Shown here: positions 59,040 to 64,000 of the stretch, piece after piece
Numbering within the stretch: the stretch's first letter is position 1
Layout: each line of letters starts with the position of its first letter
Assembly (NCBI RefSeq): GCF_044324875.1
Contig: NZ_CP172185.1
From: Escherichia coli
Lineage (GTDB): Bacteria; Pseudomonadota; Gammaproteobacteria; Enterobacterales; Enterobacteriaceae
DNA: 64,000 bases
Reading direction: 5' to 3' (one strand)
Notes under the pieces: model-generated
The model's database searches: none
The model's input: the letters and a program-made list of their open reading frames with translations, nothing else
Told to the model about the DNA's origin: nothing
Program-made: the position numbers and the translations under genes

Positions 59040-60497
59040 TCAGACCTTTACCAGCACCTGAGGGCAGTGATGGCGCAAACAGGTCAGAAGCGTGGCGAAA
59101 GCCTCTTCCATCTGCGCTTCCGGCAGACTCGCAAATCCCATCAACAGTCCTCTTTTACGCTGTGCTGTCAGGTAGTAAAGCGACAGCGGACGCACCAGTA
59201 TATTTTGTGCATTGGCGCTGGCCGCAACCGCAACATCATCAACATCGTCCGGTAAATTTAATATCAGATGCAGCCCGGCATTATCGCTGAAATCTGACAG
59301 TGCCTGTGTTCCACAGTGACGTTCAATCAGTTCACCAAGAAAGGCGCGACGGCGACTGTACAGTAACCGCATACGGCGAATATGAGCAGAATAATGCCCT
59401 CCGTTGATAAACTCAGCCAGTGCCATCTGGATCAGTGTATGCCCGCCACGATAAAGCTCAGCATGGGCACGTTTTAAAGCCTCTTTCAGCGGGCGCGGTA
59501 ATACCAGATAACCCAGCCTCAGTCCGGGATACACTGTCTTGCTGAAAGTACCAATATACACCACTGGTGCATCGTCAATAAGCCCCTGTAGTGCCGGAAC
59601 TGGTTGACCGGAAAAGCGAAATTCACTGTCATAATCATCTTCCACAATCCAGCTTCCATGCTGTCTGGCAAGGGCCAGCAAGCGTTGCCGTCGCTCAAGA
59701 CTCATCACCACGCCCAGAGGGTATTGATGGGATGGCGTGACGAAAATCAGCCTGGGAGGTGGCATCAGGCGTTCGGGAGGTACCAGACCACTGGCATCAA
59801 CGGCAACAGGGGTGATCTGCACAGCATTCATTGCCAGTACATGGCGTATTCCCCAGTAAGACGGCTCTTCCACCCATGCCATATCACCGGCATCTGCCAG
59901 CATGCGTGCAACAAGATCGATCGCCTGATGGATACCTTCGGTGATAAGTATCTGATCAGCCTGACAGCGTACGCCACGCGCAATCCGTAAATAATCAACC
60001 AGTGCATGCTGTAATTCCGGTGTCCCTCCGGTACAGCTATAGCTCAGCCGCTCCGGCTCAGGACGGCGACTGATACGCGCCTGAATCCTGCTGAACAGGG
60101 GGTGGGGAAAGGCACTGACATCCGGGACGCCGGGAATAAATGCCCCCCACTGGCACGGACTGGCGCTGACATGCCGGAGCAGATAATCCCCGCGGTGAGA
60201 AACAGCAGAACTCAGCCTGGCATCTTCACTTTTTTCCGTGTTACTGAACGCCATTAAGAAGGTATCAGGAGCCGTCTGTGCGACGAATGTTCCGCTTCCA
60301 CGACGTGATACCACATATCCTTCCGCCTGTAATTGTTCATAAGTTGTTAATACTGTGTTTCTTGAGATTCCAAGTTCAACTGCAAGTTCCCTGGAGGCAG
60401 GGAGACGGCTGTGCGGCGGTAAAGAGCCATCGAGAATAGCATAGCGAAGCGCATTATAGAGCCGTTTGTGCAGAAGTTTATCCTGCTCCTGACCCAT
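59040..60497 (-). CDS. MocR/GabR-type regulator (GntR HTH fused to PLP aminotransferase-like domain)
   Basis: ORF 59040-60533; N-terminal GntR HTH (RLPASRELAVELGISRNTVLTTYEQLQAEGYV) plus large fold-type I domain; start codon uncertain. Confidence 0.8.
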   Translation of the reverse strand: MGQEQDKLLHKRLYNALRYAILDGSLPPHSRLPASRELAVELGISRNTVLTTYEQLQAEGYVVSRRGSGTFVAQTAPDTFLMAFSNTEKSEDARLSSAVSHRGDYLLRHVSASPCQWGAFIPGVPDVSAFPHPLFSRIQARISRRPEPERLSYSCTGGTPELQHALVDYLRIARGVRCQADQILITEGIHQAIDLVARMLADAGDMAWVEEPSYWGIRHVLAMNAVQITPVAVDASGLVPPERLMPPPRLIFVTPSHQYPLGVVMSLERRQRLLALARQHGSWIVEDDYDSEFRFSGQPVPALQGLIDDAPVVYIGTFSKTVYPGLRLGYLVLPRPLKEALKRAHAELYRGGHTLIQMALAEFINGGHYSAHIRRMRLLYSRRRAFLGELIERHCGTQALSDFSDNAGLHLILNLPDDVDDVAVAASANAQNILVRPLSLYYLTAQRKRGLLMGFASLPEAQMEEAFATLLTCLRHHCPQVLVKV

Positions 60498-60651
60498 TCT
60501 GAACAGCAGCAGATCGCCTATGAATGCCCTCAACTGGATCCCTCAGATAATCAAAATTGGTACTCGATTATAGTGCCATCGCCTGCCTAAATAAACAACA
60601 CAGCGTCTCATTTGTTGCAGTTAAGTGACATATTTAACAGGAGAGTCGGGA

Positions 60652-61917
60652 ATGAAAAATTCTGAACTGAATCATCGTCGCCAGCAGGCGACTCCCCGTG
60701 GTGTGGGGGTAATGTGTGACTACTTTGTCGGGAAAGCGGAGAACGCCACGCTGTGGGATGTGGAAGGCAATGAAGTTATCGACTTTGCCGCCGGTATTGC
60801 CGTACTGAACACCGGCCATCGGCATCCAAAAATTGTGGCGGCGGTAGAGCAGCAGTTGCAGTCGTTTACCCATACCGCTTATCAGATTGTCCCTTATGAG
60901 AGTTACGTTTCGCTTGCAGAACGTATTAATGCTGTCGCCCCTGTCGATGGACCTGCCAAAACGGCATTTTTTACCACCGGTGCCGAAGCAGTTGAAAATG
61001 CGGTGAAAATTGCGCGCGCATACACCGGTCGTCCGGGGATTATTACTTTTGGCGGTGGGTTCCATGGTCGTACATTCATGACCATGGCACTCACGGGCAA
61101 AGTCGCTCCCTACAAAACAGGGTTTGGCCCGTTCCCGGGCTCAGTTTACCACGCCGTCTATCCTAATGATGCCCATGGCATTTCCGTTGATGATGCTCTC
61201 AGGAGTCTTGATCGTATCTTTAAAGCAGATATTCCTGCTGATCAGGTCGCCGCGATTGTACTGGAGCCCGTTCAGGGAGAAGGCGGGTTCAATGTCGCTC
61301 CGGCCGCTTTTATGCAGGCATTGCGTGAGTTGTGCGATACACACGGGATCCTGCTGGTTGCCGACGAAGTACAGACCGGTTTTGCCCGTACTGGCAGGCT
61401 ATTTGCGATGCAGCACTACGCTGTGAAAGCCGATCTGATAACAATGGCGAAAAGTCTGGCTGGCGGCTTCCCGTTATCGGGGGTTGTGGGGCGTGCCGAA
61501 GTCATGGATGCCCCGGCTCCGGGAGGACTGGGAGGTACTTATGCCGGTAATCCGCTGGCAGTAGCTGCTGCGCATGCGGTGCTGGATATCATTGAAGAAG
61601 AACAGCTCTGCCAGCGTGCCGATCAACTTGGCGAACATCTGAAAGAGGTGCTCAGTCAGGCCCGGGCAGGATGTCCGGCAATTGCGGATGTGCGTGGACT
61701 GGGTTCAATGGTGGCAGTGGAGTTTAACAATCCGCAAAGCGGTGAGCCGTCGGCGGAATATGCACGACAGGTACAGCACAAAGCCCGGGAAAACGGCCTG
61801 CTGCTGTTGAACTGTGGTATCTACGGTAACGTTATCCGTTTTCTCTACCCTTTAACAATCCCGGATGCTCAGTTCAGCAAAGCGCTGAATATTCTGACCC
61901 GAATTCTGCGTACCTGA
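60652..61917 (+). CDS. class III aminotransferase, 4-aminobutyrate aminotransferase PuuE/GabT paralogue
   Basis: ORF 60625-61917; ATG at 60652 preceded by AGGAGAG; MKNSELNHRRQQATPRGVGVMCDYFVGKAENATLWDVEGNEVIDFAAGIAVLNTGHRHP... resembles PuuE more than GabT. Confidence 0.85.
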   Translation: MKNSELNHRRQQATPRGVGVMCDYFVGKAENATLWDVEGNEVIDFAAGIAVLNTGHRHPKIVAAVEQQLQSFTHTAYQIVPYESYVSLAERINAVAPVDGPAKTAFFTTGAEAVENAVKIARAYTGRPGIITFGGGFHGRTFMTMALTGKVAPYKTGFGPFPGSVYHAVYPNDAHGISVDDALRSLDRIFKADIPADQVAAIVLEPVQGEGGFNVAPAAFMQALRELCDTHGILLVADEVQTGFARTGRLFAMQHYAVKADLITMAKSLAGGFPLSGVVGRAEVMDAPAPGGLGGTYAGNPLAVAAAHAVLDIIEEEQLCQRADQLGEHLKEVLSQARAGCPAIADVRGLGSMVAVEFNNPQSGEPSAEYARQVQHKARENGLLLLNCGIYGNVIRFLYPLTIPDAQFSKALNILTRILRT

Positions 61918-62051
61918 TATGCACGGAAAATTGCCACAACGGCAGGGAAGCCTTTCTTTCCCACGTGTCGTTTGTGCCAGGCGTGAGTGATTTATTCCTG
62001 ATATCACCTTTTTCCGGCGGCAATAGTCGCCGGTGTAATACGGAATCTGTT

Positions 62052-63296: not shown

Positions 63297-63609
63297 ACAT
63301 AAAGGAAAAGTATTATCGACCTCCTGTATATTAAAATTGAGTTAGCATAGTGACGAACAGATTTGGCAGGGCATATGTAGCCTGCTCCCCTCCGGGGTTT
63401 AAAGCTCTTTTTGTAAGCAACGGGCGCATGTGCTGACCCACTCATTTGACATCATGACGGTTTATCTGTACGTCACCATAACGCATTTTATAAGAATGTT
63501 TTTTGTCCCATAACAGGTGTCCACTGGTTAAAAAGGTGGGCACCTGTCGTTACCAGTACTGGCTTAATTGCTACATACGGCTGTCGGTTTACGCTTACTT
63601 TCAACTTGT

Positions 63610-63686
63610 GGGTAAGGGGATGGAGTGCGAATAAATGATCGAGCTTCGTGCGAATCACTGATCGAATACATCGGAATGCGCACTCT
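63610..63686. repeat. solo terminal-repeat remnant of an IS21-family element
   Basis: tgatcgaatacatcggaatgcgcac closely parallels the right terminus of the IS21-family copy at 37237-37262 (tgatcgaatagagcggaatacgca); preceded by further gtgcgaat/gatcg repeats; no transposase genes adjacent. Confidence 0.4.
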
Positions 63687-63855
63687 GAAGCAAACTTAAA
63701 ACATCTCTGCACCATTCCATGCACGCATAAAAGTCATTCCGGCATTTCATTTTACATAACATAAACAGAACAATAATAATTACAACAACATTCACACCAG
63801 CATTACAGAACACACTCTGTCTGTTGTTATCACCAGAAATATCAGGAGTATTTAA

Positions 63856-64000
63856 ATGATTATTTCCTCACCTGCAGATTACAGGGACGCCGCAAAACAC
63901 AGACTGCCACGCTTTCTTTTTGATTACATAGACGGCGGGGCTGTTACTGAAAAAACCATGCATGAAAATATGACCTCTTTATCTTCGGTCAGCCTCCGGC
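63856..64000 (+). CDS. FMN-dependent alpha-hydroxy acid dehydrogenase (LldD-like), N-terminal part; continues beyond window
   Basis: ATG at 63856 preceded by [52 protein letters not shown] parallels the LldD N-terminus. Confidence 0.6.

Follow-up and report, generated by a model that had tools for sequence, protein, structure and literature searches.

Four adjacent genes in the 64,000-nucleotide stretch of Escherichia coli DNA analysed here (the window) specify a PLP-dependent regulator, an aminotransferase, an amino acid permease and an LldD-like dehydrogenase. They raise the question of whether they form a single inducible pathway and, if so, for which compound. All four were found where an earlier note on this DNA had placed them, the last entering the window with its 5' end (Table 1). 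We put at about 70% the probability that the three-gene unit spanning 59040-63296 was acquired horizontally and is a self-contained module for GABA utilisation, of proteobacterial GabR type, and that the DNA from 63857 onward is an unrelated second lldD/lldP lactate module brought next to it by IS-mediated assembly of the island.

Table 1. Positions of the features discussed
Feature	Position	Strand	Remarks
MocR/GabR-type PLP-dependent transcription factor	59040..60533	-	497 aa, conserved TTG start; ORF, Pfam
Divergent control region, regulator/aminotransferase	60534..60651	.	118 bp
Box 1, TGGATCCCTC, candidate regulator half-site	60535..60544	+	conserved in 34/36 loci
Box 2, TGGTACTCG, direct repeat of box 1	60558..60566	+	23 bp downstream
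Box 3, TGGCACTA on minus strand, inverted copy	60571..60578	-	alignments
TAAATAAAC, nearly invariant, candidate aminotransferase-promoter -10	60589..60597	+	from conservation
PuuE-like 4-aminobutyrate:2-oxoglutarate aminotransferase (class-III)	60652..61917	+	421 aa
Aminotransferase-permease spacer	61918..62051	+	134 bp; position of SSADH gene in Serratia-type loci
Trp_Tyr_perm/HAAAP-family permease, predicted GABA or omega-amino-acid importer	62052..63296	+	414 aa
IS66-family end remnant, outside module, marking mosaic junction	63495..63598	.	nucleotide match
LldD paralog, 5' end (48 codons in window)	63857..64000	+	separate lactate-utilisation module

Setting and extent of the unit

The cluster had been described as accessory, and its distribution agrees: a 5.1-kb stretch is matched at 99% identity or more in 11 of 5426 complete E. 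coli genomes, on an island which adjoins tRNA-Ser(GGA) at 29941-30028, beside the core mdoGH region. Neither gabT nor puuE itself lies in the window; of the 5426 genomes, 5394 have a full-length gabT, and puuE is matched in 5370 and full length in 4369. Within E. coli the trio and the lldD region invariably occur together, so that this species by itself gives no means of telling them apart.

Other genera allow this separation. The trio is located between rpoH and livJ in Klebsiella, Raoultella, Citrobacter sedlakii, Cedecea, Cronobacter and an Enterobacter sp., and the order regulator(-)/aminotransferase(+)/permease(+) is kept in Klebsiella, C. sedlakii, the Enterobacter sp. and Cronobacter, in line with the divergent pairing of regulator and aminotransferase reported earlier. 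The E. coli island matches these chromosomal loci in nucleotide sequence only over 59052-63296, the homology ending exactly at the stop codons of the regulator and permease genes. Among 80 species-representative loci carrying the permease, the aminotransferase adjoins it in 45, and the regulator is present in the same arrangement, with the aminotransferase as its divergent partner, in 36; about 35 loci (Pseudomonas, Xenorhabdus) have no neighbouring aminotransferase. Most likely, the trio is an island-borne, horizontally acquired module, a standard feature of Klebsiella and Serratia that few E. coli genomes carry.

The lldD-like gene does not share this history. The earlier order of permease followed by dehydrogenase is correct, but the two are separated by a 560-bp gap that contains the IS66-end remnant, 87-89% identical to the ends of IS66 elements in about 2800 E. 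coli genomes, and a promoter-like site (TTTACA-18-AATAAT, 63751-63780) upstream of lldD. A weak match to the Rfam model AfaR (63519-63613; 27.7 bits, gathering score 100) overlies the remnant. The full 388-aa LldD-like protein, read from the identical locus in strain LH50-c, passes the NCBIfam LldD model (596 bits, cut-off 550), with 63% identity to K-12 LldD. Its gene is followed on the island by a papB-like gene on the opposite strand, by lldP, whose product is 86% identical to K-12 LldP, and by an MFS transporter gene. With its own lldP partner and its own promoter-like site, the lldD-like gene is an unrelated passenger.

It could still be argued that the four genes form one inducible pathway, with the LldD-like FMN dehydrogenase acting on a hydroxy-acid product or a hydroxy-amino substrate of the aminotransferase, since the genes are adjacent, the last three lie on one strand and the trio is inseparable from the lldD region across E. 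coli carriers. This reading is already largely refuted and is extremely unlikely: only one of the 80 species loci, from a Pseudomonas, has an LldD homolog 6 kb or less from the permease, and there it is on the opposite strand; the module elsewhere occurs without LldD; homology to the ancestral locus stops at the permease stop codon; and the gene passes an L-lactate dehydrogenase model. LldD was accordingly rejected as a member of the unit, on the end of homology at 63296, the single co-occurrence, the intervening IS66 remnant and the separate lldP, and nothing then indicates a 'hydroxy-amino compound' pathway. Of the inducible omega-amino or hydroxy-amino pathway proposed earlier, the omega-amino trio survives as a conserved unit, and LldD and the hydroxy-amino part fall away. 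The data thus support a conserved, divergently arranged unit of regulator, aminotransferase and permease only, directed at an omega-amino compound.

Gene products and probable substrate

The aminotransferase reading frame opens at 60625, and the ATG at 60652 is the start common to orthologs and RefSeq. The protein exceeds the cut-offs of three NCBIfam models: PRK06777 (842 bits, cut-off 725), PRK09792 (766, 747) and TIGR00700 (667, 507). Its identity is 74.9% to K-12 PuuE as against 57.5% to K-12 GabT, which justifies its earlier description as PuuE-like, and all ten GabT residues compared (I50, R141, E206, E211, D239, V241, Q242, K268, T297, R398) are identical. The spacer downstream folds into one hairpin without a T-run and of ordinary stability (z = -1.65); its sole terminator-like match, at 61967-61991, is weak. 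In Serratia, Mangrovibacter, Mixta, Crenobacter, Lautropia and Gallibacterium, a succinate-semialdehyde dehydrogenase (SSADH) gene is found between aminotransferase and permease, and the Serratia product scores 731 with TIGR01780 (cut-off 646) and shares 65% identity with GabD. In Klebsiella, Raoultella, C. sedlakii, Cedecea and Franconibacter, the standard form is the three-gene one without the SSADH gene. A sister operon on the E. coli plasmid NZ_CP107722 comprises the regulator, GabT, SSADH and, where the permease would be, an ABC transporter, and in Wohlfahrtiimonas the permease accompanies a Bacillus-type GabT and SSADH under a PucR-like regulator.

The permease frame opens at 61965, and the ATG at 62052 is the start shared by orthologs. 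The protein matches PF03222 (Trp_Tyr_perm; E = 8e-30), has at least nine clear hydrophobic segments and falls far below the NCBIfam aromatic transporter models (araaP 85 bits, cut-off 350; TyrP 48, cut-off 482); comparison with GabP found no similarity at E < 1e-5. Its Pseudomonas aeruginosa homolog is PA3766 (67% identity, identification confirmed by exact 21-mers). PA3766, described as an 'amino acid/polyamine transporter', is a target of PauR, which answers to putrescine and cadaverine and represses it together with davD-davT (PMC7901475). Other gammaproteobacterial GabR regulons list GabP or GbtBCD as the transporter (PMC5320631). These comparisons suggest that the permease slot is a GABA-transporter slot, and three independent regulatory contexts link the permease to GABA or polyamine catabolism. 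In the literature searched, no GABA transport function or transport assay was found for this permease, nor any characterised GABA carrier in the HAAAP/Trp_Tyr_perm family. The permease is the only new element of the module, the other parts being already known or predicted.

The regulator combines a GntR wHTH (residues 23-84) with an Aminotran_1_2 domain (residues 158-480; Pfam), and is 78% identical to the Klebsiella ortholog beside rpoH and 85% to that of C. sedlakii. Of the PLP residues of Bacillus subtilis GabR, it shares Y205, D279, Y281, K312 and R319, and it has Y in place of F250. Where GabR holds the GABA carboxylate with H114, R207 and R430, the aligned residues are P, G and S, so that the effector pocket is built differently from that of B. 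subtilis GabR; GABA is a predicted candidate effector. At these three positions the regulator more closely resembles Bacillus PdxR (PDB entry 7PQ9), and PGAP names it 'pdxR' in several genomes. NCBIfam scores are 285 bits for GabR (cut-off 600), 409 for PdxR (cut-off 320) and 477 for Rhizopine MocR, the last outscoring PdxR, which indicates that these models cross-hit. This label, score and resemblance would suit a PdxR-type vitamin B6 sensor which tunes a PLP-dependent enzyme to PLP supply and not to substrate. Such a role is nevertheless most improbable: neither pdxS/pdxT nor other B6 genes adjoin the regulator in the Pfam-annotated loci of Klebsiella, Serratia, C. sedlakii, Enterobacter and Cronobacter, and its divergent partner in 36 species loci is a GabT-type aminotransferase. 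Moreover, Suvorova and Rodionov (2016, PMC5320631) placed the Klebsiella ortholog KPN_03826, by comparative-genomics prediction, not with PdxR but under 'GabR (Proteobacteria) - Enterobacteriales', with GabT as its target. The identity of rpoH as KPN_03827 is consistent with the synteny of the Klebsiella trio locus. A literature search found no experiment on the module or on any proteobacterial MocR-type GabR.

Taken together, the comparative context indicates GABA as the probable compound, with 5-aminovalerate as a possible alternative. The same architecture could serve another omega-amino substrate and effector, whether 5-aminovalerate from cadaverine or lysine, beta-alanine, homotaurine or a polyamine. 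The altered effector pocket, the co-regulation of PA3766 with davD-davT by PauR and a permease family lacking a characterised GABA carrier all favour this, and GabT- and GabD-type enzymes also accept 5-aminovalerate. It is unlikely given that the aminotransferase passes three GABA-transaminase equivalog cut-offs with R141, E211 and R398 kept, that the partner dehydrogenase passes the SSADH model, that GabP- or Gbt-type GABA transporters fill the permease slot in sister operons, and that csiD/lhgO-type glutarate genes are absent beside the module in the annotated loci of the same five genera. Most likely, then, the module would import and deaminate GABA. The earlier statement that the substrate cannot be read from sequence was too pessimistic, for the SSADH partners, the GabP/Gbt-type replacements and the proteobacterial GabR ortholog (PMC5320631) point to GABA.

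Control region and proposed mechanism

The divergent spacer measures 118-121 bp in the six genera examined, with a mean column identity of 82% and long invariant blocks that recur across the 36 loci. An operator-repeat search of this intergenic region, suggested in the earlier note, identified two conserved direct repeats 23 bp apart and an inverted copy. AATTGG(A/C/T)TC occupies the box 1 position in 34 of the 36 loci, the E. coli copy being AACTGGATCC, a conservation that could be partly due to overlap, read directly from the sequence, with the regulator Shine-Dalgarno sequence (GAGGGA, minus strand) and to the TTG start, which box 1 adjoins. A TGGnnCT box follows at 23 bp in 31 loci and at 24 bp in three (34/36 in total), including the betaproteobacterium Crenobacter. 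Box 3 is conserved only in Enterobacteriaceae and the Serratia group and is lost in Pantoea, Mixta and Winslowiella. It overlaps a perfect minus-strand TATAAT (60572 to 60567), which is likely to be the -10 element of the regulator gene. TAAATAAAC is kept in most of the 36 loci, including those of the three genera lacking box 3; a consensus scan detected no sigma-70-like promoter in the control region.

From the gene anatomy, homologies and conserved sites, which constitute the demonstrated part, we infer the following steps. The HAAAP-family permease would import GABA, and possibly 5-aminovalerate. At the conserved lysine in the aminotransferase-like domain of the regulator, PLP would form an external aldimine with the amino compound. 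A regulator dimer, bound to the two direct TGGnnC(T/C) boxes and the inverted box, could then activate the weak aminotransferase-permease promoter, and its binding over its own -10, transcription start and ribosome-binding site would keep self-expression low. Transamination of 2-oxoglutarate by the PuuE-like enzyme would yield glutamate and succinate semialdehyde, and the semialdehyde would finally be oxidised to succinate. As the island copy has no semialdehyde dehydrogenase gene, unlike Serratia-type loci, this last step would depend on core GabD or Sad/YneI, which can take the semialdehyde.

The module in E. coli may instead be a silent passenger, incomplete for want of an SSADH gene and physiologically useless. 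Its presence in only 11 of the 5426 genomes, the missing dehydrogenase gene (as in Klebsiella) and IS3 insertions in strains TUM9803, where one separates regulator from aminotransferase, and MS 119-7, where one separates permease from lldD, would accord with this. We consider it very improbable, as the three ORFs are full length relative to their orthologs, the control region is intact, the SSADH-less form is standard in the five genera named above and core GabD and Sad are available.

Comparison with known systems

The module resembles the predicted 'GabR (Proteobacteria)' regulog (PMC5320631; KPN_03826, Serratia proteamaculans Spro_4307) in its orthologous MocR regulator, its divergent GabT-type gene and an operator of two direct and one inverted repeat, GabD being present in Serratia. 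It differs in location, on a serX-side genomic island and not at the rpoH-livJ site, and the regulon tables of that study for Klebsiella and Serratia give GabT, or GabT with GabD, leaving the HAAAP-family permease unlisted. Like B. subtilis GabR-gabTD (PDB 4N0B, 4TV7, 5T4J), it has a regulator uniting a GntR wHTH with a fold-type-I aminotransferase-like domain, in which the PLP lysine and PLP-stacking residues are kept, a gene divergent from a GABA aminotransferase gene and a direct-repeat operator. Unlike that system, it shows about 30% regulator identity, a GabR model score below cut-off, replacement of all three carboxylate residues, no gabD and another transporter family. The B. subtilis repeats are ATACCA, whose complement TGGTAT resembles box 2 (TGGTAC), in a wider operator (about 34 bp between repeats as against 23 bp).

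The permease shares PF03222 with the HAAAP transporters TyrP, Mtr, TnaB, SdaC and TdcC and with PA3766; its context points to GABA or polyamine catabolism and not to aromatic or hydroxy amino acids. The neighbouring passenger is like E. coli lldPRD in its LldD and LldP products and unlike it in lacking lldR and in gene order (lldD, papB-like, lldP, MFS transporter gene). Finally, the aminotransferase belongs to the same enzyme family as K-12 PuuE and GabT (csiD-lhgD-gabDTP operon), with identical checked catalytic and substrate residues, but the module is governed by a MocR-type regulator instead of PuuR or GlaR(CsiR)/sigma-S, has no dehydrogenase gene of its own and carries a HAAAP-type permease in place of the APC-type GabP. 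If the proposed function is correct, it would provide a substrate-inducible GABA route beside the core gab and puu routes, which are under stress and putrescine control.

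Genes of the module and their neighbour

All four genes described in the earlier note are present in the ORF list (see table). Their interpretation as a single accessory cluster holds in part: the MocR-type regulator, PuuE-like aminotransferase and HAAAP-family permease form a unit, to which the LldD-like dehydrogenase does not belong. The trio is a predicted GabR-type GABA utilisation module composed of regulator, PuuE-like transaminase and importer.

Genes and candidate regulatory elements of the module (window positions)
Feature	Position	Strand	Size or sequence	Basis
MocR-type regulator ORF	59040-60533	minus	497 aa	ORF list
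Aminotransferase	60652 (ATG)-61917	plus	421 aa	Ortholog-supported start
Permease	62052 (ATG)-63296	plus	414 aa	Ortholog-supported start
lldD-like frame	63857 (ATG), 560-bp gap after permease		48 codons up to window end	
Box 1	60535-60544		TGGATCCCTC	Cross-species footprinting
Box 2	60558-60566		TGGTACTCG	Cross-species footprinting
Box 3 (inverted copy)	60578-60571	minus	TGGCACTA	Kept in the Enterobacteriaceae and Serratia group
Nearly invariant element	60589-60597		TAAATAAAC	

The 5.1-kb stretch occurs at ≥99% identity in 11 of 5426 complete E. coli genomes, the carrier strains being of poultry and human origin. Core chromosome (the mdoGH region) makes up the first 25 kb of the window, and the variable part lies on the far side of a tRNA-Ser(GGA) gene (29941-30028). 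This gene, the sole tRNA gene found in the window and located just past the checked core block (1-25000), is a plausible candidate for the island attachment site. Ag43, IS66, IS21 and other island markers surround the identical locus of strain LH50-c (L001). Given this distribution and these surroundings, the cluster is not a core, named E. coli operon, in agreement with the accessory status first proposed for it.

Several IS3-family insertions were observed among the carriers. In the window, the ORF of a 301-aa transposase (55945-56850) splits a pxpA/biotin-carboxylase/carboxyltransferase cluster that is unbroken in LH50-c; other copies lie in the regulator/aminotransferase gap of TUM9803 and in the permease/lldD gap of MS 119-7. 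Core gabT and puuE are located outside the window. In the E. coli collection (n=5426), gabT is full length in 5394 genomes, and puuE has a match in 5370, with at least 80% of the gene covered in 4369, so that about a thousand genomes seem to have a truncated or partly deleted copy.

Protein searches identify permease orthologs with 75-89% identity in Citrobacter sedlakii, Klebsiella, Enterobacter, Serratia, Cronobacter and others, and homologs with about 67% identity in Pseudomonas. In Klebsiella pneumoniae, C. sedlakii, an Enterobacter sp. and Cronobacter, the regulator (minus strand), aminotransferase and permease (both plus strand) are located between rpoH and livJ, and lldD is not present in the trio loci at this site. 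In Serratia marcescens, a gene for a 484-aa aldehyde dehydrogenase is found between aminotransferase and permease; its product scores 731 bits with the succinate-semialdehyde dehydrogenase (SSADH) model TIGR01780 (cut-off 646) and shares 65% identity with E. coli GabD. A scan of one genome per species for the permease yielded 80 loci, in which partners were sought by local tblastn: a GabT-type gene adjoins the permease in 45, a MocR ortholog is found in 36 and an SSADH-like gene in 25. Klebsiella-group genera and Serratia carry the trio as a standard feature, and the island has brought it to a few E. coli. A recent deletion of gabD within E. coli was considered and rejected: Klebsiella-group genera normally have the three-gene form, so the missing gabD does not reflect E. 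coli-specific decay. A related arrangement, composed of MocR regulator, GabT, SSADH and ABC transporter, is carried by the 142-kb E. coli plasmid NZ_CP107722 (42375-50307), where the GabT gene shares 73% nucleotide identity with the aminotransferase gene of the window. The GabR operon is present here in its Gbt-type variant, carried by a mobile replicon.

Synteny, the extent of homology and an IS66 remnant all argue against membership of the LldD-like dehydrogenase. An LldD homolog is located within 6 kb of the permease in only one of the 80 loci, that of Pseudomonas putida, and on the opposite strand. Nucleotide homology to the C. sedlakii, Klebsiella, Enterobacter and Cedecea loci extends from 59052-59108 to 63296-63299, bounded by the stop codons of the regulator and the permease, with nothing beyond. 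The permease-lldD spacer includes an IS66-family end remnant (63495-63598) that matches, at 87-89% identity, the ends of such elements in about 2800 E. coli genomes, and a promoter scan reveals a promoter-like site, TTTACA-18-AATAAT (63751-63780), just upstream of lldD. An action of LldD on a product of the pathway, for example a 2-hydroxy acid, was rejected on these same three grounds. The lldD region and the trio are found in the same 11 E. coli genomes, always together; however, this is because both belong to one island, and their co-occurrence therefore says nothing about shared function.

The full LldD-like protein, available from the identical gene in L001, scores 596 bits with NF033901 LldD (cut-off 550) and 612 bits with PRK11197 (cut-off 376), and shares 63% identity with K-12 LldD. 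In L001 the next genes are a papB-like one on the opposite strand, lldP and one for an MFS transporter, the lldP product sharing 86% identity with K-12 LldP (1089 bits, cut-off 918). The island lldD and lldP constitute a second lactate module, devoid of lldR. The papB-like gene between them (L001:26200-26439, just past the window end) occupies an odd place for a fimbrial regulator; its 79-aa PapB/FocB-family product has no NCBIfam match, and the gene may be a fimbrial operon leftover. The only match of an Rfam scan of 58800-64000, AfaR at 63519-63613 (27.7 bits, below the gathering score of 100), overlaps the IS66-end remnant and is probably a by-product of its sequence, so no RNA element is claimed there.

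Aminotransferase and regulator

The aminotransferase exceeds the cut-offs of three NCBIfam GABA-transaminase equivalogs: PRK06777 (842 bits, cut-off 725), PRK09792 (766, cut-off 747) and TIGR00700 (667, cut-off 507). It is 74.9% identical to K-12 PuuE versus 57.5% to K-12 GabT, which justifies its description as PuuE-like; its identity with the enzymes of the Serratia, Klebsiella and C. sedlakii modules is 81-89%. Aligned with GabT and PuuE, it has the same residue as K-12 GabT at I50, G111, H139, R141, E206, E211, D239, V241, Q242, K268, T297 and R398. Following the structural literature on E. coli GabT, we take these 12 positions to be the active site, including the catalytic lysine K268 and the arginines R141 and R398 for the substrate carboxylate. 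Such identity fits 2-oxoglutarate as the acceptor and, as the donor, an omega-amino acid that ends in a carboxylate. The substrate of the trio is likely to be GABA, and 5-aminovalerate is possible. The earlier note held that the substrate could not be read from sequence; comparative evidence narrows it to GABA or a close omega-amino acid.

The regulator includes a GntR winged helix-turn-helix domain (residues 23-84, E = 8.5e-16) and an Aminotran_1_2 domain (158-480, E = 8.9e-24; both Pfam), and is therefore of the MocR type. It aligns over its full length, both domains included, with GabR and PdxR structures. Identity with the Bacillus subtilis GabR structures is about 30%; the PLP ligands Y205, D279, Y281, K312 (FSK motif) and R319 of that protein are identical in the island regulator and F250 is replaced by Y. 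However, the residues that bind the GABA carboxylate in B. subtilis GabR, H114, R207 and R430 (PMC6917764), align with P, G and S. Because the effector pocket is different, it is by inference that GABA is proposed as the putative effector of the island regulator.

Profile scores do not assign the regulator to the NCBIfam GabR family (NF052285, 284.7 bits, far under the cut-off of 600). It scores 409 bits with the PdxR model NF052282 (cut-off 320), and 477 bits with the rhizopine MocR model, above its PdxR score but under that model's own cut-off of 650. RefSeq genomes differ in the name given to this same protein, some having 'PLP-dependent aminotransferase family protein' and others 'pdxR', the latter because the PdxR cut-off is low and is passed. 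An identity as PdxR is, in our view, an over-call: in Klebsiella, Serratia, C. sedlakii, Enterobacter and Cronobacter, whose loci were annotated with Pfam, the regulator has no B6 genes beside it, and its divergent partner is a GabT-type aminotransferase in 36 species loci. The name 'pdxR' is probably wrong for the island regulator.

The pairing of regulator and enzyme was already predicted in 2016. In the tables of the predicted 'GabR (Proteobacteria)' group of Suvorova and Rodionov (PMC5320631), KPN_03826 of K. pneumoniae MGH 78578 is listed under Enterobacteriales as regulating GabT, and Spro_4307 of Serratia proteamaculans as regulating GabT and GabD. The island regulator is 78% identical to the Klebsiella MocR protein encoded directly beside rpoH. 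Since another paper gives rpoH as KPN_03827, KPN_03826 is the MocR gene beside rpoH and the ortholog of the island regulator, the tag being matched by position only. The transporters listed for other gammaproteobacterial GabR regulons are GabP or GbtBCD, and the island-type permease does not appear in the tables (PMC5320631). Literature searches found no experimental paper on GABA as effector, or on site binding, for the predicted proteobacterial GabR. Searches by protein accession and neighbouring locus tags retrieved nothing on the module itself, and those combining GabR with genus names retrieved only irrelevant papers.

The permease subfamily

The permease carries Pfam domain PF03222 (Trp_Tyr_perm, residues 23-376, E = 8e-30), and a simple hydropathy scan reveals at least nine clear hydrophobic segments. 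It scores well under the cut-offs of the aromatic transporter models (TIGR00837 araaP, 85 bits, cut-off 350; TyrP, 48 bits, cut-off 482), so that 'aromatic amino acid transport family protein', as it is called in RefSeq, reflects the family only. No similarity to GabP was detected at E < 1e-5. We propose, with a probability of about one half, that the permease represents an unrecognised subfamily of GABA/omega-amino-acid importers within HAAAP/Trp_Tyr_perm. In many Enterobacterales, in Wohlfahrtiimonas and Gallibacterium and in some betaproteobacteria, it would be a non-orthologous replacement for GabP or the Gbt ABC transporter within GABA operons, and its role in Pseudomonas (PA3766) would be in polyamine catabolism. 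By acquiring it together with a GabR-type activator, a few E. coli lineages would gain a route inducible by GABA which the species otherwise lacks.

Three independent lines tie the subfamily to GABA or polyamine catabolism. First, in Enterobacterales, Crenobacter, Lautropia and Gallibacterium, the permease is encoded in MocR/GabR operons alongside GabT, whether or not SSADH is present. Second, in five Wohlfahrtiimonas species (loci L094, L095, L096, L098 and L099) it comes first in a row, ahead of a Bacillus-type GabT (45% identical; TIGR00700, 614 bits, cut-off 507) and then an SSADH-like gene. In the one locus checked for it (L094:6211-12032), a PucR/PmfR-like regulator lies divergently upstream. 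The operon is similar to the PucR-type GabR system known from Corynebacterium glutamicum (PMC7652997), and in it the permease subfamily has joined a GABA operon independently. Third, the permease homolog of Pseudomonas aeruginosa is PA3766, two published 21-mers from its coding region being found exactly in the permease locus L008; PauR targets PA3766 directly, as it does davD-davT (PMC7901475). In Paenalcaligenes suwonensis (L054:9309-14851), moreover, the permease homolog is convergent to genes for an aldehyde dehydrogenase, a 5-guanidino-2-oxopentanoate decarboxylase (741 bits, cut-off 500), a sodium/solute symporter and an agmatinase-like ureohydrolase. These convergent genes form an arginine-transaminase-type route, the end product of which is GABA. 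Literature searches found no transport experiment on the permease, and HAAAP combined with GABA retrieved only irrelevant papers.

The practical value of these observations is mostly corrective: the four-gene 'cluster' is two modules, and the names 'pdxR' and 'aromatic amino acid transport family protein' used in RefSeq probably mislead at the island locus. The current understanding of GABA catabolism is unchanged by the module, and the sole modestly new point is the likely role of the permease as a substitute for GabP. If this prediction is true, it would provide a function for a widespread, uncharacterised transporter subfamily (Klebsiella, Serratia, Pseudomonas PA3766) and extend the predicted enterobacterial GabR regulon by a missing member. 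Both the gut and plant tissue are rich in GABA, so the poultry and human E. coli carriers could gain a small niche advantage from having, on a mobile island, a unit for its uptake and transamination that is induced by the substrate.

Control region and comparison with GabR systems

The spacer between regulator and aminotransferase measures 118-121 bp in the six genera examined, and its alignment shows 82% mean column identity with long invariant blocks; coding DNA is about 70% identical between E. coli and Serratia. The earlier note suggested a search for direct or inverted repeats in 60498-60651. Within the sequence alone, such a search of the control region gives only short, chance-level repeats, whereas cross-species footprinting reveals boxes 1-3, the candidate half-sites of the regulator. 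In the 36 loci with the divergent arrangement, box 1 is conserved as AATTGG(A/C/T)TC and box 2 as AAnTGGnnCT, at a distance of 23 bp in 31 loci and 24 bp in three; that of the betaproteobacterium Crenobacter is among these 34. The inverted copy overlaps a perfect TATAAT on the minus strand (60572-60567), and box 1 overlaps the Shine-Dalgarno sequence of the regulator (GAGGGA, minus strand). The TTG start at 60533 is conserved and is probably the true start of the regulator, since the 12 N-terminal codons vary synonymously between genera. A consensus scan of the control region gave no sigma-70-like promoter. In the aminotransferase-permease spacer, a scan found only a weak terminator-like site, and the fold of the spacer is not unusual (z = -1.65); the two genes are presumably co-transcribed.

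We propose that the regulator binds the two direct boxes and the inverted box and thereby blocks its own -10 element, transcription start and ribosome-binding site, resulting in autorepression. The effector-bound form would then activate the aminotransferase promoter, whose -35 element appears poor. The operator of the GabR (Proteobacteria) regulog, a pair of direct repeats plus a single inverted one, with the regulator gene divergent from GabT, has the same layout as the boxes found here, the likeness being one of layout. The same logic of autorepression and effector-dependent activation is established for B. subtilis GabR.
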